DNA from: a virus
Taxonomy: Duplodnaviria > Caudoviricetes
DNA length: 64,000 nt
IMG/VR virus record: IMGVR_UViG_3300033475_000013
Coordinates: 13,944-77,943 of that record
Direction: 5' to 3' (one strand)
Part shown: piece by piece, positions 25,262-56,540 of the stretch
Position numbering within the stretch: position 1 is the stretch's first letter
Layout of the letters: each line of letters starts with the position of its first letter
Notes under the pieces: generated by a model
What the model was told of the DNA's origin: nothing
Databases searched by the model: none
The model's input: the letters and a program-made list of their open reading frames with translations, nothing else
Translations under genes and position numbers: made by a program

Positions 25262-27386
25262 AAATGAATATCGATTTAAGTATTTAGTCACTGCGATAAC
25301 AGGTGAAGGAATTCCTTGTGTCTATCTTCCAGAAGTACCTGAAGATAAAAAAATCTTATTTACCCAGGAACAAAAATGGACACGGCCTACTGCGCCAGAT
25401 TTTATAAAGAAAGGAATCAGAGAATACGCAAAACGCGTTCAGGCTGATCCGAATTATATCCATCCACTTCAAACAGAGATAAACAGATGGGCTGATCAGG
25501 AATGGGAGCGATCAGAAAACGGAATTTGGTTTTGGAATAATGGAGTTCCAACGTACATCACTGGGTTTTATTATTGGTATCTGACGGCATGGCAGACAAC
25601 ATTCGGATTTCCTACTTACAGAGAAACGGATAAAGAATTAAGTTATTTTATAAAATATTGTGAAGAAGATCCAGATAGCTATGGAGCACTTCTAAATACT
25701 ATACGTCGTTATGGTAAGTCATCGTTTATGGGCGGATGGGCTACCTATAGAACGACACGCAATAGAAATCATTATTGTGGAATGCAGGGTGAGAACGATA
25801 AGAAGATTGGTCAGTTCTACACACAAATGATTAAATCTCCATTCAAGAAGTTGCCATATTATTACACACCAACGTATGACACTACGTCAGCTTTAACTTC
25901 AGACATAAGATTTGAGCAACCGGCAAACAGAAGTAAGACATTAATCATTGGAGATTATGATGAATCTCAGGATTTAGAATCTGTTATTGATTATAGACCA
26001 TCAGGTGTTGGTGAATATGATGGATCCATGCTTAATACTTATCTGATGGAAGAGGCAGGTAAGATTTTAAATTGTAATGTGAATGATCGATGGGCTATTG
26101 TTAAACCATGTTTACGAAAAGGTAAGGACTTACGAGGTAAGGTTTTCTTCGGCACAACGGTCGAATTTATGGATTCTTCCGGTAAGGGTGGAAAGGCATA
26201 CAAAAAATTATTCTACGAAAGTGATTTCAATCAGCGCCAACCTGACGGTAGAACCAAATCAGGACTTTATGTTTGCTTCCTTCCAGGAGATTGTGCTCAC
26301 GAAAGTTTCTTAGATAAGTGGGGACACCCGTTACGAGAAGAAGCTAAGAAATGGATATTACTTGAACGCGAATCTTATAAAGATAATCCAAAAGAACTAT
26401 CTGGATTGATCAGAAGATTCCCACTTTACATAAAAGAAATTTTCTACATCAATACTGATCGATGTGAATTCAATGCTACTATTCTTCAGGATAGAAAATC
26501 AGAATTAGAATCGATGTCAACTCCTATTCTTACCAAGGGAGAATTTTACTGGCTTGATAATAAACGATTCACTGAAGTCCGCTTCAGACATAATCCACAT
26601 ACAGGTTGGTGTTGGGTACACTCACTCATTAATGACATCAAAGAAACTAATCTTGTTCAGCGAAACATATCTTCATCTATGCCAACATTCGGCCCGATGA
26701 ATAATATGAAATTTATTTCAGGTGTCGATCCGGTGGACCATGGTGTAGTGATAGAAGGTAAAGGTGGTGATGAAGAATTTGTGAGCACACGTAGATCACG
26801 ACCTGTACTTTTTGTGAAAAGAAAATATGACTCAGCTATTGATGGAATTGTAACGCAAGAGATACTGGAGCAACGGGCAAAAGAAAAATATCAGTACAAA
26901 ACCAATCGCTACATAGCCATGATGGATGTTCGCCCAAACGATCCAAATGTTTTCTACGAGCGCGCCTTGATGATGATGTGGTATTTTGGATGTAGCCTTC
27001 ACCCTGAAAGCCAGAAGCCAGGCATTATAAATTATTTTTATGAGCAGGGATGTGGTGAATTCATCCTTAATAAATATGTGGCTGAGTCTGGTTATAAGAG
27101 AAACACCACGATGGATGGTACACCAGCAAGTCAGCCAATCATTCAGGAGTATACCGGCGCACTGGCTACTTACGTTGAATATTTTGGGCATACTATTCCT
27201 TTCATTGATCTGGTTATTGATCTTTTGGAATTTACCCCGAAGAAGACCACTGAGTATGACTACTCGGTAGCAGCAGGATTCACCGAACTTGGTGGTAAAA
27301 TACAGCCCAAGACGTACACGCAGCCTATGGTTGATATCCATGATTTCATGCCCGGATTCGATGAATATGGCAACGTTGTTAATTAA
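25245..27386 (+). CDS. terL: Terminase large subunit
   Basis: Walker A RRYGKS, Walker B LMEEAGK, GTT coupling motif, nuclease GVDPVD; precedes the portal. Confidence 0.9.
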   Translation: MFQQTKNEYRFKYLVTAITGEGIPCVYLPEVPEDKKILFTQEQKWTRPTAPDFIKKGIREYAKRVQADPNYIHPLQTEINRWADQEWERSENGIWFWNNGVPTYITGFYYWYLTAWQTTFGFPTYRETDKELSYFIKYCEEDPDSYGALLNTIRRYGKSSFMGGWATYRTTRNRNHYCGMQGENDKKIGQFYTQMIKSPFKKLPYYYTPTYDTTSALTSDIRFEQPANRSKTLIIGDYDESQDLESVIDYRPSGVGEYDGSMLNTYLMEEAGKILNCNVNDRWAIVKPCLRKGKDLRGKVFFGTTVEFMDSSGKGGKAYKKLFYESDFNQRQPDGRTKSGLYVCFLPGDCAHESFLDKWGHPLREEAKKWILLERESYKDNPKELSGLIRRFPLYIKEIFYINTDRCEFNATILQDRKSELESMSTPILTKGEFYWLDNKRFTEVRFRHNPHTGWCWVHSLINDIKETNLVQRNISSSMPTFGPMNNMKFISGVDPVDHGVVIEGKGGDEEFVSTRRSRPVLFVKRKYDSAIDGIVTQEILEQRAKEKYQYKTNRYIAMMDVRPNDPNVFYERALMMMWYFGCSLHPESQKPGIINYFYEQGCGEFILNKYVAESGYKRNTTMDGTPASQPIIQEYTGALATYVEYFGHTIPFIDLVIDLLEFTPKKTTEYDYSVAAGFTELGGKIQPKTYTQPMVDIHDFMPGFDEYGNVVN

Positions 27387-27421: not shown

Positions 27422-27736
27422 ATGGCTAAAGAGAATCTCAGAAAGACAATGGAACAGGTTTTAGAAAATGCTCCAGAGCCAGAAATCAATCAAGAACATG
27501 TCAATGACTGGCATACTGCAAAATCAGCAGAAGCATTTAAGACCATTCACCGGGATTTAAGCGCAGAAAGGATTGGTACTTTTAATATACGAGCCGCCAT
27601 CTCCGCACCAAAGTCTATCAAATATCGTCAGATGGCAATTGATTGGGAAGGTGGTAATCGTGGAGATTACATCTTTATGGATGCCAGTGGAAATAAAATG
27701 ATACTTCCATACAAACTTTTTAAACGATTATTTTGA
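27422..27736 (+). CDS. Hypothetical protein (104 aa)
   Basis: ORF track; between TerL and portal. Confidence 0.7.
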   Translation: MAKENLRKTMEQVLENAPEPEINQEHVNDWHTAKSAEAFKTIHRDLSAERIGTFNIRAAISAPKSIKYRQMAIDWEGGNRGDYIFMDASGNKMILPYKLFKRLF

Positions 27737-30132
27737 TGGATCCACTGACCAATCTTAGTAATACCAGACTTGTAGATTCTTCCTTCGCCACGAAGGGGTC
27801 AACATTTCCAAACGAATTTGTATCGCCATTAATAAAAGAACTTCCGGAGTATGGCGCCATGTATGCCAAAAGCATCTATGCTGCCAGCGGAAGATTTGGA
27901 GGATATGTGTTTTGGAATGATACTGAATATCAAGCTTTACTTGAGGTATCACAAGGTCGGCAGAGTATTGATAAGCTCAGGAACATGTTCGGCTTCTTCC
28001 GGGAGAATAAAACTGATCCTTTAGATGATGGTTCTTCAAGTCTTGCCTATCTGGATATCCAGGTTTTAAATCTGGCACCAAAATACGTTAATCGGGCAGT
28101 GGCGAAGATAATGAACCTAGAATATGATGTCCAGCTTGAGGCTGTAGACTCTGTTTCGGTACATGAAAAGAAACAATATGAAGCCAATCTTCAGGCTTTT
28201 TATGAATTCAGAGGTTGGCTTGATGATCTTAAGATAAGCCCAAAAGAACTATTTCCTGATCTGGATATTGATATTTTACCAGAATATCCAGATGAATTGA
28301 TGTATGAGATGCTCACCAATCCAAAGATGCAGAAGGCCATCGATGGTGAAGAGGCGCTTACATTGATGCAGCAGATCAATGACTTTAATCAGAAAATGCG
28401 CATGATGGTGCATGATAAAGTCGTTTATGGTCGTGGGCACATCCATTGTTACCGGGATGAGAATGGGATACCGAGAATTGATCACATCAATCCAAAATAT
28501 TATGTCGGTAGCTATGTGGAGGATGAGAACTTTGAGGGACAGGAGTATGCCGGATTCTTTGATTTCCCAACCGTAAGCCAGTTTCGGAAAGAAGCATCGG
28601 GTTATTTAACCGATGAAGAGATTGAAGAAATTGTTCAGAAGTATGCGTACATGAACAATATTCAGACAACCTATAGCCCACTCCGGGCCAATCAAAAATT
28701 CGATGGACTGAATTATATTCCTGTTTTACGCTTTTATTTCCTAAGCCAGGATGACCGGGTATTTGTAAAGCGAAATAACAAAAATGGCAATCCAACCATT
28801 TTTGAGCGTAGTTTAGGATGGAAGCCAAGTGAAGATGATCCAAGATTTGGTCAAGATGGAGATTCAGACATAATCCGCAATTCATATACCAGTGTCTATG
28901 GCGGCACCTGGATATTGGATAGTGATCTGGTGTATAACTATGGTAAAAAGGAATATCCACGTTCTAATCTTGTTGATCTTACCTTGCCAATAAAAACTTT
29001 CGCTCCACTTTACAAAGAAGGAAGAACGGTGAGTTTCTGCGCACAGATGATTGAGCCATTGTTTATGATCAATGTGGCATGGAATAAAATCAAGCAGATT
29101 TTAGCGCAAGGATTCATGGGCGTGCAGGAAATTGATTTTACTCAGTTGGAGAAAGTAGCGTTAGGTAAAGGTGGTCAAGCATGGACACCACGTGAAGTTT
29201 ACAAGCATTTCCTGCAAACCGGCAGATTAATCAAGAGATCGCCAGTTAATAAATATGATCAACAGTACTCTGGTAGTGCTGTTGAGGCTGGACAGACCGG
29301 ATTACAAATGAGTGATTATTTGAGTGTCCTAACTACTGGCATCAATATGCTTGAGCAGTTGACAGGAACTACAGTGGCTGAATCTACCCAGATGCCAGAT
29401 AGACTTCCTGTTCGTGTAATGGAGCAATCCCAGGCAACAGGTGATCTTGATATGGAATATCTTTTTAATTCATACACCTACATGTATCGCGCTGTTTGCA
29501 CACAATTACTCGGGATGGTGCAGCAGGCTAAGCGTGATGGAATTGGAATTGCGGGATTTATTCCTTCTCTGGGTAAACACGTTACTGTTTCCGATCGGAT
29601 TGCGCTTTGTGATTATGGATTGTTTTTGGTTAAGTCACCTAGCGGAGCTGAATGGCAATCGCTTTGGGATGATCTACAGATTGGTCTTCAAAATGGAACA
29701 CTTACTCATCTTGATGTGGCGTACATTAAGGATATAAAGAATCTGAAGAAAGCTCGTCAGATACTTGGAATCAGGGTTAAGGTTAATGAGCGTAAGGCTG
29801 CGCAAATTAATGCGATGAATCAGAAAGCGGCCATGGATGCCAATCGTGCGGCAGCTGCTGATAAGGCTCAGGGAGAACTTTATAGCCTTCAGGCGAAGGG
29901 ACATATTGATGAGGATTTGATCAAACTTAAGGGGCAGATCGATGAGCACATTATGGTTTGTGATAATGAACTGAAAGCTGCGATGAATGATAAAACCAAT
30001 CTGGTTAAACAGCAGATCGCCAAACAAACCAGTGTGGATGAGATTATTAAGAAGTCAGTTGAGAATAAAGCTAAATATGCTCAGGTTGCCGCAAAGGAAC
30101 GTAGTGATAAAGAAAAATCAGATTCTAAATGA
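27733..30132 (+). CDS. Portal protein (crAss-like)
   Basis: 799 aa after TerL; ILNLAPKYVN...helical core; long C-terminal coiled-coil barrel. Confidence 0.8.
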   Translation: MMDPLTNLSNTRLVDSSFATKGSTFPNEFVSPLIKELPEYGAMYAKSIYAASGRFGGYVFWNDTEYQALLEVSQGRQSIDKLRNMFGFFRENKTDPLDDGSSSLAYLDIQVLNLAPKYVNRAVAKIMNLEYDVQLEAVDSVSVHEKKQYEANLQAFYEFRGWLDDLKISPKELFPDLDIDILPEYPDELMYEMLTNPKMQKAIDGEEALTLMQQINDFNQKMRMMVHDKVVYGRGHIHCYRDENGIPRIDHINPKYYVGSYVEDENFEGQEYAGFFDFPTVSQFRKEASGYLTDEEIEEIVQKYAYMNNIQTTYSPLRANQKFDGLNYIPVLRFYFLSQDDRVFVKRNNKNGNPTIFERSLGWKPSEDDPRFGQDGDSDIIRNSYTSVYGGTWILDSDLVYNYGKKEYPRSNLVDLTLPIKTFAPLYKEGRTVSFCAQMIEPLFMINVAWNKIKQILAQGFMGVQEIDFTQLEKVALGKGGQAWTPREVYKHFLQTGRLIKRSPVNKYDQQYSGSAVEAGQTGLQMSDYLSVLTTGINMLEQLTGTTVAESTQMPDRLPVRVMEQSQATGDLDMEYLFNSYTYMYRAVCTQLLGMVQQAKRDGIGIAGFIPSLGKHVTVSDRIALCDYGLFLVKSPSGAEWQSLWDDLQIGLQNGTLTHLDVAYIKDIKNLKKARQILGIRVKVNERKAAQINAMNQKAAMDANRAAAADKAQGELYSLQAKGHIDEDLIKLKGQIDEHIMVCDNELKAAMNDKTNLVKQQIAKQTSVDEIIKKSVENKAKYAQVAAKERSDKEKSDSK

Positions 30133-44365: not shown

Positions 44366-47300
44366 ATGAATAAGAATCCTAATTCTAAATTCACTCCTTT
44401 AGGTGGCGCAAATCAAGATGATAGTTTAATAACTCCTTCTCCAGATGCCGCTGGACGTTCGCTTTTTGAGAATGGAGATTATCGCTATGCCCTTAATTTA
44501 AGAATAGGATCAAGCAGAGGAAGTAATTTTGGAGATGGTGAGAATATAAAAAGCACATTAGCACTTGAAAATTATATTGGTTATGACAGACAAACCTGGG
44601 AGAATTCACCAACCAACTTCCCAGGATCATTAAGCGGATGGAGTGTTTATAATTCAGGAACAGATTTAGCATTTACTTACGGATCGACTCCGCCAAATAT
44701 TTTTCCTGGCGCAAAAGTCAGCATTAATTTAAGCACTATAAAACAAACAGTTACTCTTTATCAGGTTCATCCTATATCAGTGGGTGATTATTTAACACTG
44801 AGTTATGCTTTCACTAGAAATCTTGTTAATCCAAGTTCATTACTAATTGTCGGATTGTATTTAGTCTATCTGGATGGCTCTGGTACTGAGATAGCATCAA
44901 CGCTAATCGATAATTTAAATTCATACTCATCATCCATTGGACATCCGTCCAATGTTATTTCATTGTATGCTACGCAAAATTGTGCAGCTATCGGTTTTAA
45001 AATAAAGAATACAACTACAGCAGGTTCGACAATAGAGTATGTTGTTGATCAATTTAAAATTGATCAGGTATTCAACACCATTGTAACTACTCCACCAGTA
45101 GGAAATAATAAAGTAATCGGCAGGTATGAGGACGTAGAATTTCAACGTATTTACAAATTTGTTTATAACAGCAATAGCAACCATACGATTTCATACTTTG
45201 ATCCCAACACATCAACGACGTATGAGATACTGAGATGGTCAGGACTTTCTTTTCAAAGCAATTATTTTGTAAAGGCTGCAAAGCTTGATAATTGGCTTGC
45301 GTTTACAGATCGAAATAATGCTCCGAGATTGATAGATACTGATTCAATACAGAGTCTTTTCCTTCAATTAGGTTCTACAAATTTTAGAGAATTTCATATC
45401 TCATTTCATAAATGGGCACCTACCGTTCCGCCTATACCAAGAAATTTTTTCGATACGACTACGAATGTTAATAATTTCGAAAAGCTTAAAAACAAACTGC
45501 TACAATTTTCTTATAGATACATTTATTTCGGAAATCTTAAATCGCGCTGGAGCCCGATAAGCAAAGGATGTATCACTAATATTTGTGGATCATATTATTC
45601 AACGGCTCCTGTGGGTCAGCCTATTCAAACACAGAAGATAACTTCTATTGAGGTTGATATACCTGGTTGCATTTATGATGATCCAACATCTTCTGCGCAG
45701 TATAATTATTTTGATCACACTGATCTGAAGTTTAAAGTTGCTGTGCAGTATATAGAATTAGCATTCCGTGAAAGTGAACTTGATTTATGGAAGCAATGGA
45801 AGACAGTTGATGTCAATAATGGATATAATCGCTATCAATATTTTGATGGTTCAGCCACATTAACACCACTCGCGCAAGATGATTTTAATCAGCCATTTGA
45901 TACTGTGCCATTTAAAGCAGGTACAGTAGAAGCTGTTGATAATAGATTTGTGTTCGCTGACATTCTCGATGAACAACCAGCCGCAACAGGATTATCTGTC
46001 GGCAATATTTCTATTGCTAAAAATGGTGATTGGGCAACTTCTGTGAATACAGAGTTTCCTTCATTAACACCACCACAACGCGCTGATATTTTAAGAAAGA
46101 ATAGTCTGAGTAATTTCAATTTTAAAGATCGTGCGATATACAAAATTGGCATACAGTGGCTTCATAAAACTGGATGGAGAAGTGCTATCTATACTACTGA
46201 TCAATTTATTTACAATGTCGATGATAACAATGTAGGTTCAATAAATGCACAAGTTGCTTTTAATTTCTTATTGAGTGTGACTCCTCCTGATTGGGCTGTT
46301 GGTTACCAGTTATTCAGAACGAATGCATTGAATATAGATGCGTTCATTTATGGAATTGCAAATAAGTTTGTGCCACTTGTTGATGATGTTTCTACCATTC
46401 TTGATCAGACAACTCTACCTGACAACATCAAGGATAGAATTCGTCAGCATTTTGAGAACTCAAGAATTATCGATGGTAATGATGTCATAAAGCAGGCTGA
46501 GATTGAAGTTAACGCTGCCATTCAGGCTGATAAGAATAAAAATAAGAATCGAAATAATTTCCTGAAACTTCAGGAAAATATTGGTAAAGGAAGTGGTGTA
46601 CTGGAGTTGTATGGAACAAATCGAGCACTTAACAAATATTTACGTAGCAATCCTATTGCTGTAAAACTTATTCCTGAATTACGCAAAACAAAAGCAATCA
46701 ATGTACTCGCTGATTCTAGTAGGATTTATATTGATATCAACAACTGGTACTCAGGTTCTAAGAAAGGATTGAATAAAGAAAATCCGCTAAATAAACTTTA
46801 TTACAATTATCGTGAAGGTGATCGTGTACGGTTTGTAGGAAGCGATGTTGCTTCGCCATCAAATGCTTCACAATTGAAGGAGTATGATGTTCCTATCATT
46901 GAATTTACCGGTAAAGGAATAATTATTGAAAAGCCTGCAACAATGCTGTGGATGCAGGCTGAAGGAGCTCTTGGAGGTTTCTATTATTATAACATAGAAA
47001 TTTATACTCAGAAGACACCAGATTTAGCCGATCATTTATTGTATGAAGTTGGTGAGTGGTATCCTGTACTTTATCCAGGTGCAAGTAATAGAGCACTTTC
47101 TAAATCAGATTTTGTCTATACAAATAATGCAGCGGTAACATCTGTTACTTATGGTCCATTCAATATCTTCAATAAGATACCTTTCTTTTACGCGGACTGT
47201 TACATTGTTCCTAAGACTGTTTATCGGGACACATACGCCATTTCTCCAGATGTTGCACAGAGTACAGGTAATCCAAGTTCTGGTGTTAATCTAAGCATGA

Positions 47301-48496
47301 GTCCTGATCCTGATAAAACTTTTGATTATTGGGATAAGTGCGATGGTAGAGTGTCTACTACGTATCAAAATTTACCGATTTCAAAATTCAAGACTACGCT
47401 GGCTCGATTCGGAGGCAAGATAGTGGAGCAGTCTTATGTGAATAATCTCAACAATTTTGTTGACGAAAATCAGTTTTTATATCCTTCAGAGTATGGACGA
47501 ATCAGAAATCTGATCAATACTTCTAATGCCCAAGTTGAATCTGTAGGAAGTATTCTTCTGGCCATTGGTGAGCGAGAAGCATGGAGCATCTATGTTAATC
47601 GCACAACACTTGAAGATCTTAGTGGTAATACCCAGGTTGGGTTAAGTGATCAGATACTTGGTAGTTATAATACATTACTTGGTAGCCATGGCACATTAAA
47701 TCCTGAGTCTGTATCAAAATATCGTGGTAATGTTTACTGGTGGGATCAGATCAATGGATCATGGGTACGCTACGGTCGTGATGGGCTTACGCCAATTTCT
47801 GATTATAAAAAGAGAAACTGGTTTAAGGAATTAGGAACCTTACTAATGCCTTATTATTTCTCTGGTGAAATTCCTGTTGTGATGAGTGAGTTTGATCCAT
47901 TCAATATGGAACTTGTTACATTTATGAGTCATAGTTTATTACCTGCTACATTCAGAGGATATGATGATTATAAGGGTGATACCTTCAGTGAGAACGATAA
48001 GCGATGGAAACATTGCCATTCTTATAAGCCTGAGATGTTTGCCAAAATGAATAATCAATTGTATTATTTTGATGGTGGCACTATTTATCAATTAGAAGCT
48101 GGTCCGGATTATAATACTTTTTCAGGAATCAAGTATGATTCAATGATTGAGCCAGTGTTTAATACTGATGTTACTGATGTTAAACACTGGAGAAATATTG
48201 CTTACATTACTACTGATCGGTGGTCAGTTGAACGAATTTTAAGTGAATATCGTGGCAATAAGGCTTTGCAGCAATCAAGAATACAGCTTGAGGCTTTTGA
48301 ATTGAAGGAAGATACGTATTGGGCAGCTATTAAAAATGACATAAATACTCCAAATGTTTTAAATCCTATTGTAGAAGGAGCGCCGATGAGAAGCAAAGCT
48401 ATCCAGGTTTTAATGAAGCTTGATCCAGCAGTTGATTACCTGAGCTTATTCCATTTTGCATTTGGCTTGTACGATGAATCACCAATAAATACGTAA
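44366..48496 (+). CDS. Tail stabilisation / muzzle-like protein (1376 aa)
   Basis: N-terminal GDYRYALNLRI...GDGENIKST; propeller-like repeats; HGTLNPESV and YSEN...W..CHSY.P near the C-terminus. Confidence 0.7.
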   Translation: MNKNPNSKFTPLGGANQDDSLITPSPDAAGRSLFENGDYRYALNLRIGSSRGSNFGDGENIKSTLALENYIGYDRQTWENSPTNFPGSLSGWSVYNSGTDLAFTYGSTPPNIFPGAKVSINLSTIKQTVTLYQVHPISVGDYLTLSYAFTRNLVNPSSLLIVGLYLVYLDGSGTEIASTLIDNLNSYSSSIGHPSNVISLYATQNCAAIGFKIKNTTTAGSTIEYVVDQFKIDQVFNTIVTTPPVGNNKVIGRYEDVEFQRIYKFVYNSNSNHTISYFDPNTSTTYEILRWSGLSFQSNYFVKAAKLDNWLAFTDRNNAPRLIDTDSIQSLFLQLGSTNFREFHISFHKWAPTVPPIPRNFFDTTTNVNNFEKLKNKLLQFSYRYIYFGNLKSRWSPISKGCITNICGSYYSTAPVGQPIQTQKITSIEVDIPGCIYDDPTSSAQYNYFDHTDLKFKVAVQYIELAFRESELDLWKQWKTVDVNNGYNRYQYFDGSATLTPLAQDDFNQPFDTVPFKAGTVEAVDNRFVFADILDEQPAATGLSVGNISIAKNGDWATSVNTEFPSLTPPQRADILRKNSLSNFNFKDRAIYKIGIQWLHKTGWRSAIYTTDQFIYNVDDNNVGSINAQVAFNFLLSVTPPDWAVGYQLFRTNALNIDAFIYGIANKFVPLVDDVSTILDQTTLPDNIKDRIRQHFENSRIIDGNDVIKQAEIEVNAAIQADKNKNKNRNNFLKLQENIGKGSGVLELYGTNRALNKYLRSNPIAVKLIPELRKTKAINVLADSSRIYIDINNWYSGSKKGLNKENPLNKLYYNYREGDRVRFVGSDVASPSNASQLKEYDVPIIEFTGKGIIIEKPATMLWMQAEGALGGFYYYNIEIYTQKTPDLADHLLYEVGEWYPVLYPGASNRALSKSDFVYTNNAAVTSVTYGPFNIFNKIPFFYADCYIVPKTVYRDTYAISPDVAQSTGNPSSGVNLSMSPDPDKTFDYWDKCDGRVSTTYQNLPISKFKTTLARFGGKIVEQSYVNNLNNFVDENQFLYPSEYGRIRNLINTSNAQVESVGSILLAIGEREAWSIYVNRTTLEDLSGNTQVGLSDQILGSYNTLLGSHGTLNPESVSKYRGNVYWWDQINGSWVRYGRDGLTPISDYKKRNWFKELGTLLMPYYFSGEIPVVMSEFDPFNMELVTFMSHSLLPATFRGYDDYKGDTFSENDKRWKHCHSYKPEMFAKMNNQLYYFDGGTIYQLEAGPDYNTFSGIKYDSMIEPVFNTDVTDVKHWRNIAYITTDRWSVERILSEYRGNKALQQSRIQLEAFELKEDTYWAAIKNDINTPNVLNPIVEGAPMRSKAIQVLMKLDPAVDYLSLFHFAFGLYDESPINT

Positions 48497-49085: not shown

Positions 49086-51002
49086 ATGGCATATAGGGAA
49101 TTCCATCACGAGAAAACTTACGCCAAGCCAGACTTGAGCCATTTTTTGGATGCCTCTACTCAGGCTGTGTCCAATCTATTTCAATCCCTTGCACAACAAC
49201 ATAGGCAGAAGCAAAAGAATGTTGATCAGTTTAATTATGATCTCACTAATGGGAAGTTTGAAAATGATCAAAAAATACTCAGTGAATATGCTACTAATGT
49301 AGTTAACCGGGGAAAGCAGGAAATCTTAAATAATGGTAAGACTTCCAGTGAGACTGCTGGTATGATGAATCAAGGCAAGACATGGCAGCAAATGAGCCAG
49401 ATTCAATTTGAAAAAGCAAAGAATCTACAGGCTGAAGTCTTGGCCCGAGACTCTAAAGATCCTTATTATGATGCCCAGGTTGATTTAGCGAAAGTTAAAG
49501 AGGCTACCAACGGTAAAGATAATGAGGTTAATTTCTTAGATCGTGGTAATAGACTAGCTGAAGCAGAGAAAAATCTTGGCGGAGTTGATGCTTTCAAATA
49601 TGCTAATTACCGCGCTGATTATGTTAAAAATTTAGGGAATGCCTACAAAGAAAAAACAGTAGGTAATCCTAACGCTACAAAAACTCAATATGATCAGAGT
49701 ACTTTCTGGCTTCCAAATGGAAAGCCTGGTGTTTCTGATGATCACGCTATTGAGTACATAAAAAGTGATCCGCAAGGCCGGGTTGATGCTTATTTCAATA
49801 AACGTGTTAATGACCAACTTGACTCTGAGATCAGTAAGATGAAGGCTAGTGGCGACACGCGTGTATCTTGGATGAAGGGAATGAAGGATGAGGATATCAA
49901 AAACGAACTAATCAATGATCCATCAAAAAATATCATCAATAAACAGGATTTTGGTATTCGTAAAAGAGAATTAGCAAAGGCTGATTTATCTGAAGCGAAC
50001 AGAATTAACAGTAAAATATCTGTTGATTATAAAGCCGCAAAGAATGATTCTCAAGGACTTTATAAGAATGAAAATATTGTTCATAGCTATTCATTCAACA
50101 ATGATAAAATGATGGCGCAATTTCGGACTGGTGAAAATAAAATCATCCTTCCGAATGCCAATGGCGAAAACTCAACCAATACTTATAATCCAGGACCGGG
50201 TGGTGTACTCTTCCAAAAGAATGGGAAACCTTTGCAGTTCACCTCCAATAATCCTGTTAGCACAGATTTGAATACCGGCACAACCAGCAAATCAAAAATT
50301 GGGAGCAGACCTTTTAATCTTACTTCGTATCAGTTGCAGGCATTCAATAAAAATGGATATCCGGTAACTATTCAGGGTAATTCACCTGATGAAATGATAG
50401 AGAGTATCAAAAAGTTACCTAATGAACATTTTGATCCAAACGGTTCTTACAAACTTAATCCTGAGATGAGTATAGCTCTTCAGGGATACTCTGTGAATCC
50501 AGCAAATATTTTGAATGCAGCCAATAACCAGGAGCAATCCATAAACTCAAAAATTGCTGCCGCTCAAAATGATAACGATGATAATGAGGTTAGCGTACAG
50601 GAAAAAAATCTGGAGAAAATTCAGATTTTAAAATCTATGATTCAGGCTGGTGTTGATGATCAGGAGTTATCGCTTGCTGCAAGCCGTGCTGGAATTAAAG
50701 GTGTTCAGACTAATGAAATTGTACAGGCTACTGATACTGATCTTGGGTCTGTGAAAGCCATCACACAAGGTCTTGATTTGAAGAATCCTGATTATTGGAA
50801 TGATGGCATGCGCCGGGTACATGAAGCTTACAAAGCAAAAGCACAGGATGCCGCTGCGTCTGGATATAAATCAGAGAAACCAAAGACTGTTCGGAAACAA
50901 AAAGTGAATGTTTCCGCTGAAGATTTTGATACAAAATGGAAATCATTGAAATCAGGAGAAAGTTTAGTTGGTCCTGATGGCAAAACTTATACTAAAAAAT
51001 AA
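49086..51002 (+). CDS. Ejection/cargo-like protein 2 (638 aa)
   Basis: Helical, hydrophilic; synteny. Confidence 0.6.
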   Translation: MAYREFHHEKTYAKPDLSHFLDASTQAVSNLFQSLAQQHRQKQKNVDQFNYDLTNGKFENDQKILSEYATNVVNRGKQEILNNGKTSSETAGMMNQGKTWQQMSQIQFEKAKNLQAEVLARDSKDPYYDAQVDLAKVKEATNGKDNEVNFLDRGNRLAEAEKNLGGVDAFKYANYRADYVKNLGNAYKEKTVGNPNATKTQYDQSTFWLPNGKPGVSDDHAIEYIKSDPQGRVDAYFNKRVNDQLDSEISKMKASGDTRVSWMKGMKDEDIKNELINDPSKNIINKQDFGIRKRELAKADLSEANRINSKISVDYKAAKNDSQGLYKNENIVHSYSFNNDKMMAQFRTGENKIILPNANGENSTNTYNPGPGGVLFQKNGKPLQFTSNNPVSTDLNTGTTSKSKIGSRPFNLTSYQLQAFNKNGYPVTIQGNSPDEMIESIKKLPNEHFDPNGSYKLNPEMSIALQGYSVNPANILNAANNQEQSINSKIAAAQNDNDDNEVSVQEKNLEKIQILKSMIQAGVDDQELSLAASRAGIKGVQTNEIVQATDTDLGSVKAITQGLDLKNPDYWNDGMRRVHEAYKAKAQDAAASGYKSEKPKTVRKQKVNVSAEDFDTKWKSLKSGESLVGPDGKTYTKK

Positions 51003-54000
51003 TGGGAAAGCAGGTTAAAGGATGGGTGCCGCCAGAAGATGCTGTTGAATCAACAGTAATAGAAGAATCTGGTTCATCTGAAGGCACTCCATCATGGACT
51101 CCTCCGGCAGACGCTATTGTATCTGAACCTGTAAAAAAAAAAGATCAATCAGTTTCTTCGAGCGACTCAAGCGTTCCTGGCGAGCCTTCTGGAAAGAGTA
51201 CAACAAATATTCAATTAAGCGATCAGCAAAAACAAACTCTGCTAAAAAACACCGCTCCAAAAACAGAGCAGCAAAAACTATTTGAGAGCACTCAGAAGAC
51301 CGCTGATGAACGTAGCGCACGAGAGTTTGTCACTGGTGAAAAAGAATCTAAAGATTTCATCTCTTCCTTAACAAGCACCATTCATAGTGGTATTGTTGAT
51401 CAATTGCCAAAAGAATATTATACGCAACGCCTGCGGATGAGTAAAGGTGACTTTACTGATCTGTATGATAAGCGTAGTGATCTGAATGCTTTTGGCGCAG
51501 ACTCATTCACCAATAAATTACCGAAAGGAACTTCACTTAATGATTTTACTGAATGGAATTTAAAGCAGCCAAGTGCCATTTCTAAAAAGTCAATCAATGA
51601 GCGTGCTAAAATATTTTTAACTGAAAAGTTAGGAGCAAAAGGATTTGAAGATTTAAAATCACAGTTCGCTGTAAAAAATGTAGAACAGCGTTTAGGTTTT
51701 GAGAAAAACATCGAAGAACAAAATATTGAAGCTGGTTCTAAATTAAAAGGTGTCATTCAGGATTTGAAAGAAGTTAATGGCGCTGGTGACTTTCTGAGTT
51801 TTGCCGGTAATATGATTGGGCAAGCTGTATACCGTGCGCCAACATCTATTGTAGGTGGTCCTACTGGATCAATCATATCAGAGTCGGCCGCTATCTATGA
51901 TCGCCAGCTTGATCTTATTGCTGAGAATGAAAGCCAGAAGGAAGGAAGACCAGTTACCCGGGCAGAAGTAGTTGAGCGTGGATTAGATAAGCCCGCTGAA
52001 GGACAAGCCTTGGCGGTACTTGCTGGATCACTTGATGCTTTGAGTGAATTTAATCTGATCGGTATGTTTAAAAAAGCAGCTGGTAAACAGTTGACTCAAA
52101 GCATGGCAAAGCAATTTGCGAAAGGATTTGTTCGGGGTGCCGCGCCGGAAGTAGCAACTGAAGTTGCCCAGGGAGAACTTGAAGAATTTGCTGCCTCTAA
52201 AGGTGCTGGCGTTGAATATCATCCTGATGGCTGGAGAATGGCTACCTCTGCCGTTGGTGCATTAATAGGCGGAGGTGCCATTGGTGGATTGTCAACTGTT
52301 AAGTTATCAGAACATCAACAAGAACAATCAGCACCGGAATTAGTTAAAGAACAGACAGAGAATTTATCATCAACAGATACTCATTTCATTGAGCAAGCTG
52401 CTGATGTGATTGATAAAAAAGTTCAGGGTAGTCCTGATGATGCTACCGTTGCACTGGAGAAACCAAAAGAGGAAGAACCAGTGAGTAATGTAACAATAGA
52501 ACATACTTTACCAACAACAAAACCAGAAGACAATGCCATTCAAGAGCAACGCACAGAGGAAATACTTCAACGTCAACCGGAAGAAACTGGAAGCTCAGGG
52601 AGTGAACGTGGACGAGTGGAACGAAGCCAGCAAGGGGAAAGTACTACCGGAGAAAGTGGGCAAGAAGAAAAGCCTGCTACACAGAATGAAGGAACGGAAG
52701 AAAACCAAATAAACGATGAAAGTCTACAGCAACAAAAAGAAACCGAAGCTGGGATCGGGGGAACGGTTCAAGGAACTGAAGAACAAACTCAGCCATCAGA
52801 AGGGAGTGAAGAATCCAGCAGCAATCGCGGCAGCGGCGGGAATGAAAAAATACGGCAAGGAGAAGATGGAGGAAATGGCACAGAAGGGCAAAAAGAAGTA
52901 AATAAAAAGTCACTTCTTAATCGAGCTTATAAAGGAGCTACTGATGAACAAGTAAAAGCATCAATTGAAAAGCATGGATTAAACTATGAAGTGGAAAGCC
53001 ATGTTGCTGCTGAAAAATCTGCTGCCAATTTTATTAAAGATGTTGGTATTGATAATGCTATTGAAGCCGTTCGAAAGAATGAAGTAGATGATGGTGCCGC
53101 TGCATTTGTATGGTCAAAAGCTATTGATGATGTTGGTGAAAAATTATCTAAGACATCTTCTCCAGAAGAAATAAAAACATTGACAGATCAGCAGACAGCA
53201 CTTATTGATGAGTTCGATAAAAAGGCACGATCTGGCGGACGCTTCATATCTGCTCTCCAAGAAGTTTACCGCTCGTCTGATTTTGGGTACAGTAAAGACT
53301 ATCAAGTCAAAAAATATAAAGAGGTTAATAATGGTAAAATATCTTCTGAGATAGAGGCTAAATTCACTGAACTTGAAAAGCAATTAAAAGAAGTCAATGC
53401 TAAACTGAAGGCATATGAGGAATCGCAAGCTAAATCTAAGTCGAAAGAGTCAGTTCAGAATCTTCGCGTGGATTTGCAGGCTCAAAAAGAAAAGAGGATT
53501 AAACTGGCTGCCGAAAAGAAAGCTAAGATTGATGAATTTTTCAATTCTCTTAAAGTAAAGAATGAACCCGGTAAGCTAAACTCCATCACCCAGGTAATTG
53601 GTGAGGCTGTATGGAATGGATCAATCGAAGTAATGCGTAAGGCTGTGATGGCCGGTGCTGATGTAGCCATGGCAATACAATCTGGTATTGACTATATCAA
53701 TGAGCATTATCGTGGTGATGATTTTAAAGAAGAGGACTTCAGGACCATGATGCAGCCAGGCATCGAGCAATTAATTCCTTCCTCTGAAGAATCAAAGATC
53801 AGTAAGCCAAAAATGAAAGATGGTAAACTGATTATTCCATCCGCCATGGTCCGCCAATTGGTTGAAGAGGGTGTTGATAATATTGAAGACCTAACACAAT
53901 CCATCCATGATCTGATTAAAGATGAGATGCCTGATGTATCGCTTCGTGAAGTGCGTGATGCCATCACGAAGTATGGTGAGACGAGATCATTATCCCAGGA

Positions 54001-55996
54001 TGAGATTAATACCAAAATACGTGAGTTAAAACGTGTAGGTAAACTGGTGTCTGCATTGGAGGATGTTCAGAATAAATTACGTCCGCTTCGTAGTGGAGTT
54101 CAGCGTGATAAACTCACTGACCAGGAGCGCCGCATGCAGCGTGAGATTAAAGAGGCAATGAAAGATTTGCCGGTTGATGAAGCAGAGCAGGCTGAAGCAT
54201 GGAAAAATGCACTTGATGCTGTAAAGTCAAGACTTAAAAATAGTATTACTGATCTTGAGGAACAGATTAAAACCGGGGCTAAAACGCCAAAGAAAAAAGG
54301 TATTGAGTATGATCAGGAGGCTAAAGATTTAAAACAACAGCGCGATGATCTGAAAAAAATATTGGAAGCCACTGAGGGCAAGCAGACTTTATCCGATGAG
54401 CAGAAAACCAGAAATGCTGTAAATGCTACTCAAAAGGCTATTGATGAGTATGAACGCCGTATATCAGAAAAGGATTTTTCAGTTAAGCAGAAGTCAACCA
54501 CTAAAGAAACTCAGGAGTTAAAAGATCTTCGCGATGCCAGAGATAAACTGAAATTCACTTACAAGCAACTTGAAAAAGATTTAGGCGTGGCTGATAAGAA
54601 GCGTCTTGAGAATTATAAAAAAGCTATCAAAAAATCAGTCTCTTCTTACGAAGATCGAATTAAAAAGAAAGATTTTACAAAACCTGTAAAAGCAAAGCCA
54701 TTAGCATTAGACAAAGAAGCCTCTGACTTAAAATTGGAGCGCGATAAAATAAAAGCTCAGTTTGATGTTGAGCAAGAAAAGGTAAGGTTGGCTAATAGGC
54801 CAATGAGTGAAAAGATATGGGATACAGCGGTAGACGTATGGAATTTACCAAAATCATTTCTTGCGTCTATTGATATGTCTGCTCCATTCCGCCAGGGTGC
54901 CTTATTATCGGCTGCTAATCCAAAAGCTGGTGGCAGATCATTTGTCGAAATGTTTAAGCAGGCATTCTCTCAAAAGAAAGCTGATGAATGGCTATTGAAG
55001 TTAAAGGATAGTCCAGAGTATCAGTTGATGAAACAGAGCAAACTTTATATTGCTGAGTCAAATACAAAATTAACTGCGAAAGAAGAACAATTCTTATCCA
55101 ATCTTGCCAGTAAAATACCTGTTATTGGAAGACTGGTAAAAGGTAGTGAACGTGCTTACTCAGGATATCTAAACAAACTTCGTGTAGATGTTTTTGCTAA
55201 TGGTGTTGATCGATTAATGGAGCAAGGTATCACGCCAGAATCAAATCCTGAAGCATATAAGGCATGGGCAAGCTTTATTAATAACGCCACCGGACGTGGA
55301 AATCTTGGAGCCCTCGAAACTTCTGCTACAGTGCTTAATGGATTCTTCTTCTCTCCAAGATATTTAGCCTCAAGAGTTAATTTATTGAATCCGGTTACAT
55401 ACGCAAAGATGCCAGCGCCAGTAAGGAAAATGGCAATAAAAAATATTTTGGCTTATGCTGCTTTTGGAACATTAGTTATAACCCTGGCGGCAGCTGCTGG
55501 AGCAGATGTTGAACATGATCCTCGCTCTTCTGATTTTGGAAAAATTAAAATAGGGAATACTCGATATGATTTATGGGCTGGCTTTCAGCAAATCATTAGG
55601 CTTATTGCTCAATTGGCTACCGGAGAACGAAAAAGCACTACTACTGGAGAAATTATTAAAATTGATGGTAAGAAGTTTCCATTTGAGGATAGAAGCGATG
55701 TGATTAAACGCTTCTTCCGCTCTAAATTAGCACCAACAGCCAGCACAGCGGTTAATTTATTGACAGGAAAAGATGTTGTCGGTAATGAGGTAACTATCCA
55801 AGGAGAAGCTATTAAAAATGTTATTCCATTATATCTTCAGGATATTGCTTCTATCTATAAAACAGAAGGACCAACAGTGCTTATTGAATCAATGATCCCT
55901 GCATTCTTTGGCATCGGAGTGCAGAATTATGAAGCTAAAAAAGCTGGCAAAAAGAAGAAAAAGCAACGTGAGGATAGCTTAGGATTCACGTATTAA
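51002..55996 (+). CDS. Large ejection/cargo-like protein 3 (1664 aa)
   Basis: Gly/Ala-rich hydrophobic segment, coiled coils, C-terminal INNATGRG...FFSPRY...DPRSSDFGKIKIG region. Confidence 0.75.
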   Translation: MGKQVKGWVPPEDAVESTVIEESGSSEGTPSWTPPADAIVSEPVKKKDQSVSSSDSSVPGEPSGKSTTNIQLSDQQKQTLLKNTAPKTEQQKLFESTQKTADERSAREFVTGEKESKDFISSLTSTIHSGIVDQLPKEYYTQRLRMSKGDFTDLYDKRSDLNAFGADSFTNKLPKGTSLNDFTEWNLKQPSAISKKSINERAKIFLTEKLGAKGFEDLKSQFAVKNVEQRLGFEKNIEEQNIEAGSKLKGVIQDLKEVNGAGDFLSFAGNMIGQAVYRAPTSIVGGPTGSIISESAAIYDRQLDLIAENESQKEGRPVTRAEVVERGLDKPAEGQALAVLAGSLDALSEFNLIGMFKKAAGKQLTQSMAKQFAKGFVRGAAPEVATEVAQGELEEFAASKGAGVEYHPDGWRMATSAVGALIGGGAIGGLSTVKLSEHQQEQSAPELVKEQTENLSSTDTHFIEQAADVIDKKVQGSPDDATVALEKPKEEEPVSNVTIEHTLPTTKPEDNAIQEQRTEEILQRQPEETGSSGSERGRVERSQQGESTTGESGQEEKPATQNEGTEENQINDESLQQQKETEAGIGGTVQGTEEQTQPSEGSEESSSNRGSGGNEKIRQGEDGGNGTEGQKEVNKKSLLNRAYKGATDEQVKASIEKHGLNYEVESHVAAEKSAANFIKDVGIDNAIEAVRKNEVDDGAAAFVWSKAIDDVGEKLSKTSSPEEIKTLTDQQTALIDEFDKKARSGGRFISALQEVYRSSDFGYSKDYQVKKYKEVNNGKISSEIEAKFTELEKQLKEVNAKLKAYEESQAKSKSKESVQNLRVDLQAQKEKRIKLAAEKKAKIDEFFNSLKVKNEPGKLNSITQVIGEAVWNGSIEVMRKAVMAGADVAMAIQSGIDYINEHYRGDDFKEEDFRTMMQPGIEQLIPSSEESKISKPKMKDGKLIIPSAMVRQLVEEGVDNIEDLTQSIHDLIKDEMPDVSLREVRDAITKYGETRSLSQDEINTKIRELKRVGKLVSALEDVQNKLRPLRSGVQRDKLTDQERRMQREIKEAMKDLPVDEAEQAEAWKNALDAVKSRLKNSITDLEEQIKTGAKTPKKKGIEYDQEAKDLKQQRDDLKKILEATEGKQTLSDEQKTRNAVNATQKAIDEYERRISEKDFSVKQKSTTKETQELKDLRDARDKLKFTYKQLEKDLGVADKKRLENYKKAIKKSVSSYEDRIKKKDFTKPVKAKPLALDKEASDLKLERDKIKAQFDVEQEKVRLANRPMSEKIWDTAVDVWNLPKSFLASIDMSAPFRQGALLSAANPKAGGRSFVEMFKQAFSQKKADEWLLKLKDSPEYQLMKQSKLYIAESNTKLTAKEEQFLSNLASKIPVIGRLVKGSERAYSGYLNKLRVDVFANGVDRLMEQGITPESNPEAYKAWASFINNATGRGNLGALETSATVLNGFFFSPRYLASRVNLLNPVTYAKMPAPVRKMAIKNILAYAAFGTLVITLAAAAGADVEHDPRSSDFGKIKIGNTRYDLWAGFQQIIRLIAQLATGERKSTTTGEIIKIDGKKFPFEDRSDVIKRFFRSKLAPTASTAVNLLTGKDVVGNEVTIQGEAIKNVIPLYLQDIASIYKTEGPTVLIESMIPAFFGIGVQNYEAKKAGKKKKKQREDSLGFTY
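52533..52712 (+). CDS. Nested +1-frame small basic protein, MPFKS-type (59 aa)
   Basis: Manual translation MPFKSNAQRKYFNVNRKKLEAQGVNVDEWNEASKGKVLPEKVGKKKSLLHRMKERKKTK; A-rich upstream region with A at -3. Confidence 0.7.
   Translation: MPFKSNAQRKYFNVNRKKLEAQGVNVDEWNEASKGKVLPEKVGKKKSLLHRMKERKKTK
52716..52901 (+). CDS. Nested +1-frame small basic protein (61 aa)
   Basis: MKVYSNKKKPKLGSGERFKELKNKL...NPAAIAAAAGMKKYGKEKM; starts 3 nt after the first nested stop, same frame. Confidence 0.7.
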   Translation: MKVYSNKKKPKLGSGERFKELKNKLSHQKGVKNPAAIAAAAGMKKYGKEKMEEMAQKGKKK

Positions 55997-56036: not shown

Positions 56037-56540
56037 ATGGTTAACGAGACACTATTTCACAATGAAAGCGCGGTCTTCAGGGCTGTTACCGGCGGAGCCT
56101 ACAACATTCCAAACTCATACGGGGATATTATGGCCGGAACATCTTTCCCAAAGAAAGGCACTATTCCAATCGCAGTAACGTCTCTTGGCACAATCACATC
56201 AGGAGGTAAATGCGTTCGTGGAGTTGGCACTCAGTTCACAAGATTATTAATAGGAAGTTATTTGTATGACGGTAATGTACTTCGTCAGATTGATTATATC
56301 GTGAGTGATACCATGCTTTTCTTAAAGCAGGCATTTCCTACTGATATTTCTGTGGGAATAGCATTGAAATTTGTGGAGCGTCAATATTATAAAATGATTA
56401 TTGCCACCAGTACCGATTCAGCCAATCCTGCTATTTTACAAGAAGCACCATTCAGGCCTAACGATAAAGTGTTTGATGGCGGCGCACCTTACAGCTACGA
56501 TGCAACAACTGGAGAAATTTCTTTCCAGGTTAGTCAATAA
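56037..56540 (+). CDS. Hypothetical protein, probably structural (167 aa)
   Basis: Beta-rich; GVGTQFT motif like fibre domains. Confidence 0.65.
   Translation: MVNETLFHNESAVFRAVTGGAYNIPNSYGDIMAGTSFPKKGTIPIAVTSLGTITSGGKCVRGVGTQFTRLLIGSYLYDGNVLRQIDYIVSDTMLFLKQAFPTDISVGIALKFVERQYYKMIIATSTDSANPAILQEAPFRPNDKVFDGGAPYSYDATTGEISFQVSQ

Follow-up and report, generated by a model that had tools for sequence, protein, structure and literature searches.

The window analyzed here, a stretch of 64,000 nucleotides from a virus record in IMG/VR, carries a giant gene of 1664 aa (P0003) on the + strand at 51002-55996. TerL (25245-27386), portal (27733-30132), and virion structural genes lie upstream of it on the same strand, as does a gene at 44366-48496 (+) whose 1376-aa product matches the C-terminal domain of the crAss muzzle protein (PF25729, crAss_MUZ_C; 30.5 bits at a cut-off of 27, E = 5e-7), the sole Crassvirales marker that was looked at. 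This match would assign the giant gene to a putative tail/cargo module of crAss-like type. The genes on either side of the giant gene are syntenic. The upstream neighbor (638 aa; 49086-51002, +) has a counterpart of 619-630 aa before the giant gene in most of the fetched relatives with a complete upstream gene, and the downstream neighbor (167 aa; 56037-56540, +) has one of 167-172 aa in all fetched relatives. Homologues of the upstream gene (25-28% identity) also precede the giant gene in distant loci that share the nested gene described below (L023 and L084).

The giant protein is composed of an N-terminal conserved part (aa 1-505; 51002-52516, +), which is 59-77% identical in relatives L001, L010, L011, and L013-L015; an acidic linker (aa 511-634; 52532-52903, +); and a C-terminal conserved part (aa 640-1664; 52919-55996, +), which is 70-81% identical in close relatives. 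We found 200 homologues of 1100-2900 aa, some of which carry ART-PolyVal, Kinase-PolyVal, LPD23, or Zeta_toxin domains at approximately aa 700-1000. A Pfam search of the window's own protein returned no domain at E < 0.008, and this protein does not combine several unrelated effector domains in one polypeptide, as polyvalent proteins do. Since PolyVal-type domains are present in its homologues while the protein itself has no Pfam domain, its sequence places it as a relative of polyvalent proteins and not as a demonstrated polyvalent protein. The other hallmark of such proteins, a setting among virion genes, is present at this locus, and from that setting the giant protein is predicted to be packaged and injected. 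A search of GenBank phages with the giant protein gave one weak match and no close relative, and a scan of metagenome contigs with a giant-protein alignment matched a single contig, already found in IMG/VR. The sequencing runs listed for the locus include no RNA run and are small-share DNA runs labeled soil and rhizosphere.

Inside the giant gene, ORF listing and translation recovered two ORFs in tandem in its +1 frame, each complete with start and stop, on the same strand, and wholly within 51002-55996: A (P0001; 52533-52712, +), which runs for 59 aa from ATG to TAA and begins MPFKSNAQRKYF, and B (P0002; 52716-52901, +), which runs for 61 aa from ATG to TAA and begins MKVYSNKKKPKLGSGERF. The stop of A and the start of B are separated by 3 nt (TAA ACG ATG; 52710-52718, +), and the corresponding spacers in relatives L001, L011, and L012 measure 6, 9, and 12 nt. 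The initial annotation had described these ORFs as small, basic, and preceded by A-rich sequence, and each of these properties was reproduced, with pI values of 10.4 for A and 10.3 for B and 56% A in the 25 nt 5' of both nested ATGs. The stretch that is read twice (52533-52901; 369 bases) consists of 42% A and 10% T. Gene callers at these loci list the giant gene only, and A and B are absent from annotation. The nested copy of A is the only member of its family in the assembly, and the nested copy of B is the only member of its family on this contig; another B homologue in the same assembly has replication-type genes, not virion genes, as its neighbors. The length of the ORFs alone is not beyond chance. 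When the amino acids of the host frame (that of the giant gene) were kept fixed and synonymous codons were redrawn, two ATG-initiated ORFs of at least 59 aa arose in 9.7% of 20,000 shuffles, with a mean of 1.33 stops in the +1 frame compared with the 2 observed, a comparison that is circular because the host sequence would itself be a by-product of the nested genes.

It is homology that decides the matter. Database searches returned 93 matches to A and 46 to B, with identities of 60-85% and E values as low as 1e-17. Every match had been called as a small gene on a metagenome contig, and the contexts are those of free-standing genes. The likeness to stand-alone small basic phage proteins, which the initial annotation had proposed, is thereby borne out, and homologues, whose absence would have counted against the proposal, exist for both peptides. 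Family HMMs matched both ORFs over their full length, A at profile positions 1-57 (E = 3.2e-33) and B at profile positions 2-55 (E = 6.8e-32). A has the Met-Pro N-terminus and the invariant S5, E28, and N30 of family A (MP[YF]KSxAQxxYFNxNRKxLExxGVNVxEWNxxSKGxxLP), and B has the invariant KLGSG.RF of family B (KLGSGxRFxxL...NPxAxAAxxGxKKYGKxKM). Family A comprises 1579 representatives at 50% clustering and 273 loci in IMG/VR, and family B occupies at least 412 viral loci; outside the nested loci, members stand alone as genes or form modules within larger proteins. Among the top 146 family A representatives, 66 are at least 200 aa long, most of them with A at the extreme N-terminus (residues 1 to ~48), and A-led proteins in other phages reach ~1000 aa. 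Fusions include A-NUDIX-DUF6321 and A-Gly-zipper-DUF6321, while a 949-aa protein combines B with DUF6496 and has a weak match to the XkdF protease. In six loci, a stand-alone A gene begins 3-10 nt past a giant-family ORF.

Neither the two peptides nor their family alignments matched any model in Pfam or PHROGs. A tblastn search of GenBank phages with A and B also gave no match, for which the low-complexity filter is possibly responsible. The AF2 model of A shows three short helices (pLDDT 82) and had no Foldseek match in the PDB; no meaningful match emerged when PDB sequences were searched with profiles. The ESM Atlas returned unnamed viral clusters only, the nearest named families being DUF3008 (score 0.85) and DUF6496, which are leads only. 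In full-text searches of the literature, neither families A and B nor any gene nested within a polyvalent or cargo gene was found to have been described.

The nesting itself recurs in other phages. Full-length HMM matches located A in the same +1 frame in 10 of 10 related giant genes and B in 5 of 10, counts that are no estimate of prevalence, as these ten genes were picked by a motif that is a by-product of A. A scan of IMG/VR gave 36 matches (30 unique) of A nested in ORFs of more than 1000 aa, and across all 36 the host frame was -1 relative to nested A and never the other frame. All 30 nested copies preserve the start, the stop, and the full-length family profile, and in each of them the ATG falls at the conserved N-terminus of the family. 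Both ORFs are intact in L001 and in relatives with a giant protein that is only ~71% identical, and nested A is found in giant proteins with a C-terminal part just 24-31% identical to that of the window. Stops in the +1 frame of close relatives had been named as evidence that would weigh against the proposal; none occur inside the ORFs. The N- and C-terminal parts always share one frame, whether the spacer contains A alone, both A and B, or A and B separated by an insert of ~860 nt. The arrangement is retained in dozens of uncultured phages. On a tree of 39-aa A cores, the nested label required 7 changes compared with 23 in shuffles, and the nesting may have had a single origin, with the reservation that this tree is poorly resolved.

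Purifying selection changes frame exactly at the linker. Pairwise pN/pS estimates, which are biased where frames overlap, were 0.34, 1.14, and 0.20 in the host frame for the N-terminal part, linker, and C-terminal part, respectively, and 1.16, 0.50, and 1.19 in the +1 frame. Nested A had a pN/pS of 0.32 compared with 1.62 in the host frame (283 pairs), nested B had 0.37 compared with 2.6, and stand-alone A had 0.15 compared with 1.96 in the frame corresponding to that of the host. The embedded frame is thus under purifying selection. The constraint on nested A is weaker than that on free A (0.32 vs 0.15), as expected under dual coding and also under partial decay. The latter would apply if A and B were relics, absorbed into the giant gene, no longer translated, and kept by inertia or by constraint on the host gene or RNA, and the loss of B from several lineages, where only an MKV/IRSNK remnant is left, would be in keeping with such a fate. 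However, nesting has been kept across hosts at 24-31% protein identity with start, stop, and profile intact in 30 of 30 copies, the host frame is without constraint able to hold the sequence, the nested copy is the sole A gene in the assembly, and a full AAGGAG(G) lies 5-8 nt before the nested ATG in four relatives. We consider it improbable that these genes are relics.

The host-frame reading of the linker (NAIQEQRTEE...GQKEVN; 52532-52903) has a pI of 4.2, with 28 D+E against 11 K+R, and is only 53% identical to L001, whereas the +1 frame of the same DNA is 73-77% identical; its GC content is 0.47 compared with ~0.39 around it. The initial annotation had regarded this linker as a by-product of the nested genes, a view that agrees with host-frame pN/pS values of 1.14-1.62 in the overlap as opposed to 0.20-0.34 in the flanks and with values of 0.32-0.50 in the nested frame. 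Because A and B have many non-nested homologues, the small genes are the older partner, with the embedded genes ancestral and the acidic linker the derived by-product. The same homologues fit absorption of what had been called a mini-operon, be it through insertion or through fusion of flanking genes; absorption in frame does not hold, as the genes lie out of frame (+1).

What selection upholds in the enclosing frame is its openness alone, not its amino-acid sequence. The host frame is free of stops in 30 of 30 nested copies, whereas stand-alone A cores have a mean of 4.0 stops in the equivalent frame and are open in 0 of 26; given the protein sequence and the codon usage of stand-alone genes, the probability that this frame would be open is 0.03 per gene. 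Codons at risk of a host-frame stop end in T in 0 of 537 cases in nested copies compared with 101 of 435 (23%) in stand-alone ones. These figures bear on the alternative that the N- and C-terminal parts are two separate genes flanking ordinary small genes, with the host frame open by accident or not read through. Such an arrangement would explain why there is no amino-acid constraint on the host frame in the overlap (pN/pS of 1 or higher), and free A and B do occur beside large genes in other phages. Nevertheless, a ribosome that starts at 51002 must read through a frame that contains no stop, 30 unique copies are all open with no T at any of the 537 risky positions, and the two parts share one frame regardless of spacer content. 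We regard two separate genes as very improbable.

An SD-like 5-mer precedes nested A in 4 of 30 copies, not above the 9% background, and the window's genes are generally without SD sequences; AAGGAG(G) is found 5-8 nt before nested A in L013, L023, L059, and L061. MFE values of -3.4 and -5.4 kcal/mol were obtained around the nested ATGs, compared with -12.3 kcal/mol at the start of the giant gene itself, and promoters or terminators inside the giant gene are no more numerous than in shuffles. A stop in the +1 frame lies 1-13 codons before the nested ATG in 28 of 30 copies and only 1-2 codons away in L001, L011, L014, L045, and L052. Programmed ribosomal or transcriptional slippage could in principle give access to the +1 ORFs, yielding a fusion of the N-terminal part with A or of A with the C-terminal part, and the region is rich in potentially slippery A runs, while the A module forms the N-terminus of proteins of up to ~1000 aa in other phages. 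Yet the upstream stop leaves no room for a fusion of the N-terminal part with A, the nested ATG corresponds to the invariant Met-Pro N-terminus of the family, and the giant protein has no homologue among the 66 long A-led proteins; frameshifting is accordingly given an even slimmer chance. Finally, a T-poor, purine-rich acidic linker would leave the +1 frame open and Lys-rich with nothing encoded there, as GAA/GAG-rich DNA reads one base on as AAG/AGA-type codons, but chance ORFs of this kind are a practically negligible prospect and are excluded by homology, given that HMMs from free-standing genes match at E values of 1e-32 to 1e-33, that pN/pS is 0.3-0.5 in the +1 frame with no such constraint on the host frame, that every one of the 30 nested A copies retains its ATG and stop, and that the contexts of the stand-alone homologues exclude their being mis-called frames.

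We propose, with a probability of approximately 0.85, that 52533-52901 is a genuine dual-coding segment, where a giant virion-cargo gene encloses, in its +1 frame, two ancestral genes for small basic proteins. A and B occupy the inter-domain zone of this gene, which is a polyvalent-family relative in a probable crAss-like podophage. In the proposed model, the giant protein would be translated through the spacer as a single chain, A would arise by internal initiation at the ATG at 52533, where the leader is A-rich, T-poor, and nearly unstructured in a phage that does not use SD sequences, and B would follow by coupled re-initiation 3 nt past the stop of A. The host frame is kept free of stops by purging T at third positions that carry a stop risk, and the outcome is an acidic, fast-evolving spacer between the N-terminal part (~505 aa) and the C-terminal part (~1025 aa).

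The domain fusions suggest a role for A and B as modules joined to virion cargo. Because A leads hundreds of larger modular proteins and directly follows giant-family genes, we read A and B as putative small basic partners, adaptors, or DNA-tethering proteins that would be produced with the giant cargo protein. They are probably cargo-associated basic modules, which is the weakest step of the interpretation; a DNA-condensing role would be a guess. We also entertain, as a doubtful idea, that the nesting is functional: the basic peptides (pI ~10.4) might bind the acidic spacer or tether the cargo to DNA, in which case their synthesis would keep pace with that of the giant protein, and they would enter the capsid and the host with it and be inseparable from it by recombination. 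In a wider sense, A and B would serve as general leaders or adaptors by which phage proteins are marked as virion cargo.

Several known systems resemble this locus in part. Like A and B, the Pfam families DUF3008, DUF6496, DUF6321, and DUF5872 are short modules, free or fused, in head-proximal clusters of phages, and A and B neighbor or fuse with DUF6496, DUF6321, and DUF5872; unlike them, A and B match no Pfam or PHROG model. This link to DUF6321 and DUF6496 modules, and to cargo enzymes, offers a lead on how proteins may be loaded into the virions of uncultured phages. In phage lambda, the whole of Rz1 lies within Rz, on the same strand but in the +1 frame, and has a start and stop of its own; the two products form one complex and are both required, and Rz1 escaped early annotation. 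The present locus is similar in that a complete +1-frame gene on the same strand inside a phage gene was overlooked in annotation. To our knowledge, Rz1 has no life outside Rz-type loci, whereas A and B come from mostly free-standing families, lie two in tandem, and share DNA that the host reads as an unconstrained spacer.

For the polyvalent proteins of phages and conjugative elements (Iyer et al. 2017, PMC5512222), packaging and injection are likewise predicted, and homologues of the giant protein carry PolyVal-type effector domains in the same central variable zone and among virion genes. In the window's protein, however, this zone consists of out-of-frame genes and not of in-frame domains, and the text of Iyer et al. 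2017 (PMC5512222) does not mention "overlap". A conserved protein pair has been invisible in annotations, and similar genes may be hidden in the variable zones of polyvalent or cargo genes elsewhere.

Overprinted genes are well known in small viruses, such as gene B within gene A and gene E within gene D of phiX174 and p19 within p22 of tombusviruses (PMC8227390). As in those cases, one DNA is read in two frames, with an old and a derived partner, and the derived frame is of low complexity and probably disordered. The present case differs in that it occurs in a dsDNA genome of ~78 kb with no obvious size pressure. At least 30 distinct sequences share it, which makes it an unusually well replicated natural example of dual coding in a large dsDNA phage. 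It also gives frame sharing a concrete form, in which one frame is informative and the other merely open, marked by a recoding signature and a GC island. Furthermore, the direction of origin can be read: classic overprinting creates a gene de novo within one that is already old, whereas here old free-standing genes became enclosed by a giant gene, such that the embedded partner is old and the enclosing frame derived, the reverse of the textbook case.

The 1664-aa gene at 51002-55996 on the + strand encloses two small ORFs in its +1 frame, ORF A (52533-52712; ATG start, TAA stop, 59 aa) and ORF B (52716-52901; ATG start, 61 aa), with three bases between the TAA of A and the ATG of B. Both had been proposed in the initial annotation and were reproduced at these positions, as was the acidic linker it described in the host frame: the pI is 10.4 for A, 10.3 for B, and 4.2 for the spacer read from the shared DNA in the host frame. 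The dual-read stretch is rich in purine (A 42%, T 10%), and within window positions 52500-52900 the nested genes form an island with a GC content of 0.47, against about 0.39 around it. Across relatives, nested A has a GC content of 0.44 to 0.57 regardless of that of the locus (0.31 to 0.66; e.g., L045, L052, L056, and L059), as expected if drift is limited by dual coding. The length of the two ORFs has no significance by itself, since 9.7% of 20,000 trials in which host amino acids were held constant and synonymous codons redrawn yielded a pair of ATG-initiated ORFs of ≥59 aa. Such a test becomes circular if the host sequence arose as a by-product of the nested genes, and homology and comparative data were therefore used as evidence.

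Searches of Pfam and PHROGs with A and B gave no match for either. In a collection of 5.8 billion proteins, however, A had 93 matches (E values to 1.6e-17, 60-85% identity, 41-104 aa) and B had 46 (E values to 1.3e-15, 58-75% identity), and the homologs on other contigs were free-standing genes. The previously suggested resemblance to stand-alone small basic phage proteins is thus correct, as A and B fall in real families of such genes. Alignments gave a conserved core of MP[YF]KSxAQxxYFNxNRKKLEAQGVNVDEWNxASKGKKLP for A and KLGSGxRFKxL...G(A/V)xNPAAVAAAxGxKKYGKEKM for B. A HMMER scan of 1.84 billion representatives placed 1579 clusters in family A at an E value of ≤1e-3, and IMG/VR contained 273 loci for A and at least 412 for B. 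Some free copies lie within runs of 40- to 100-aa genes between head and tail genes, adjoining DUF6496 and DUF6321, and others lie immediately 3' of a 625-aa gene.

Nesting is conserved well beyond the window. In the single close relative in IMG/VR (L001, 77.3 kb), whose giant protein is 71-73% identical to that of the window, the +1 frame at the homologous place carries both A and B with ATG and stop (73% and 77% identical), and the host-frame spacer over this DNA is 53% identical. Homologs of the giant protein number 200 (1100-2900 aa), and DNA was fetched for eight of them bearing ERG[GR]VE, the host-frame by-product of GVNV[DE]EW in A. Together with the window and L001, this makes ten genes, each of which contains A at full length in the +1 frame (E values of 3e-22 to 3e-33), a proportion that gives no estimate of prevalence because the set was picked by this motif; B is also present in five. 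A less biased scan of IMG/VR with the A alignment found 36 nested matches (30 unique) in ORFs of >1000 aa, and in each of them the host frame lies one base 5' of the frame of the small gene, never in the other frame. Some of these hosts are only 24-31% identical to the C-terminal part of the window's protein (52919-55996, aa 640-1664), and others resemble the window only through the upstream 638-aa gene (25-28% identical). The start of A usually lies about 465-660 codons inside the host gene; in all nested copies an ATG marks the family N terminus and a stop follows the basic tail. In 28 of 30 copies a +1-frame stop 1-13 codons 5' of the ATG, often just 1-2 codons away, leaves no room for a frameshift fusion of A with the N-terminal part of the giant protein. 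In a 1928-aa relative (P0150; L013:1993-2849), about 860 nt of host-frame sequence part nested A from B, i.e., an in-frame insert between two out-of-frame genes. Gene calls in public records at the fetched nested loci contain the giant gene alone.

Selection also distinguishes the two frames. Among nested A cores (283 pairs at 70-98% nucleotide identity), pN/pS was 0.32 in the +1 frame and 1.62 in the host frame, with amino acid identities of 71% and 52%, respectively; free-standing copies of A gave 0.15 in the small-gene frame and 1.96 in the equivalent non-coding frame, and nested B gave 0.37 (+1) and 2.6 (host). When the window was compared with six relatives by region, the +1 and host frames gave 1.16 and 0.34 in the N-terminal part (51002-52516, aa 1-505), 0.50 and 1.14 in the linker (52532-52903, aa 511-634), and 1.19 and 0.20 in the C-terminal part. 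The constrained frame therefore switches exactly at the overlap, despite an alignment steered by the host protein and thus biased toward the host frame. The C-terminal part contains a further open stretch in the +1 frame, at 53184-53354; it spans about 50-70 aa (117 aa in L013) and is present at the corresponding position in every close relative. The host protein is strongly conserved there (DEFDKKARSGGRFISALQEVY), the +1-frame pN/pS of 1.19 applies to the C-terminal part as a whole, and this stretch is probably a by-product.

The host frame, in turn, is held open by selection. Free A cores contain a mean of 4.0 stops in the frame used by the giant gene and are open in 0 of 26 cases, and the chance of an open host frame for a given A protein sequence under free-copy codon usage is 0.03. 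T-ending codons before a codon starting with AA, AG, or GA occur at 0 of 537 positions in nested copies versus 101 of 435 in free copies. Moreover, the N- and C-terminal parts share one frame whether A alone, A and B, or A, the ~860-nt insert, and B intervene. The frame-wise pN/pS values and the purging of stop-risk codons indicate that both frames are functional in terms of selection, which preserves sequence information in the small frame and continuity alone in the host frame. The other alternative frame would be easier to open by chance (7 of 26 free copies) yet is never used, suggesting either common descent or that the spacer needs to be acidic and not basic. Overall, dual coding at 52533-52901 is well supported, with a probability of roughly 85%.

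Genes of this phage mostly lack a Shine-Dalgarno site and have A-rich leaders, and both nested ATGs have a leader of the same kind (56% A). Among approximately 40 + strand ORF starts at window positions 3719-63000, almost none had a Shine-Dalgarno motif and leaders were A/T-rich, a pattern consistent with a Bacteroidota-like host initiating without this motif; AGGAGG before 49086 was the single clear exception. Predicted folding around the nested ATGs was -3.4 and -5.4 kcal/mol per 80 nt, versus -12.3 at the giant gene's own start, the near-unstructured RNA being due to base composition (z of about 0). A full AAGGAG(G) precedes the nested ATG by 5-8 nt at L013, L023, L059, and L061, and Shine-Dalgarno-like 5-mers before nested A were not enriched across 30 copies. 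We infer that A and B are translated independently of the giant gene, and the gap of 3-12 nt from the stop of A to the ATG of B suggests that B may be translationally coupled to A.

Upstream of the giant gene, on the same strand, lie genes for TerL, portal, virion structural proteins, and a 1376-aa protein with a crAss muzzle C-terminal domain. A Pfam search of the window's giant protein found no domain; in its homologs, ART-PolyVal, Kinase-PolyVal, LPD23, or Zeta_toxin lies at about aa 700-1000, the variable zone between the N- and C-terminal parts. Given this setting and these effector domains, the giant protein may be read as related to the polyvalent proteins described by Iyer et al., which are predicted to be packaged in the virion and injected (PMC5512222).

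AF2 models predict three short helices for A (pLDDT 82) and a helix-loop-long helix for B (pLDDT 73), and fold and PDB searches found no match. Of the best 146 of the 1579 family A representatives, 66 are at least 200 aa long, and in most of these A occupies residues 1 to about 48; fusions include A-NUDIX-DUF6321 and A-Gly-zipper-DUF6321. The A module forms the extreme N terminus of many 200- to 1000-aa modular proteins (e.g., P0290, P0332, P0307, L032:2468-3853, and L067:1074-2978; also A-DUF5872), with K-x-A type junctions directly after it, and looks like a shared leader of modular phage proteins. One 949-aa protein combines B with DUF6496 and a weak match to an XkdF-type protease, and B is also fused behind an A-like module. 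Even without nesting, A is tied to giant-family genes, as a free A gene (at about 2501-2656) begins 3-10 nt past the stop of a ≥830-aa ORF at L051, L053, L069, L073, L076, and L078, the ORF at L051 being homologous to the giant C-terminal part (23% identity). These fusions and placements suggest that A and B may act in association with virion cargo as basic leader or adaptor modules, with DNA tethering or condensation a possible role. A search of the assembly for a second A gene found none beyond the nested copy. Its other B gene (55 aa, free-standing) is on a different contig (L180:1492-1659; G000:C617:28257-28412) beside ORFs that by eye are ParB-like (165 aa) and RusA-like (208 aa), a replication-type rather than virion neighbourhood that cautions against a purely structural reading.

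In terms of age, the embedded genes are the older component and the host frame, which gives the acidic spacer, is derived, enclosure having come about by either read-through fusion of flanking genes or insertion of the small genes. In a 39-column tree, from which the number of origins is not readable, nested copies cluster (7 changes versus 23 in shuffles). Giants with A only (L014, L015, and L017) keep MKV/IRSNK, the N terminus of B, at the end of A, which suggests that B was lost secondarily; L001 likewise has a duplicate of MKV(R/H)SNK where A ends (L001:4700-4770), and the motif in this position was probably left behind by deletion of B.

Genes embedded completely in the +1 frame of another gene have precedents in phages (Rz/Rz1) and small viruses. 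Compared with these, what is new here is that two ancestral free-living genes are enclosed in tandem and that the enclosing frame has become no more than a spacer; also new are the location within giant cargo genes and the replication across dozens of uncultured phages. A full-text literature search for genes nested in polyvalent or cargo genes, or for families A and B, found no description. Classic overprinting has the opposite polarity (PMC8227390), whereas here the embedded genes are old and the enclosing frame is derived. Finally, where the variable zone of the giant protein's homologs holds in-frame effectors, the window's giant gene instead holds out-of-frame genes.
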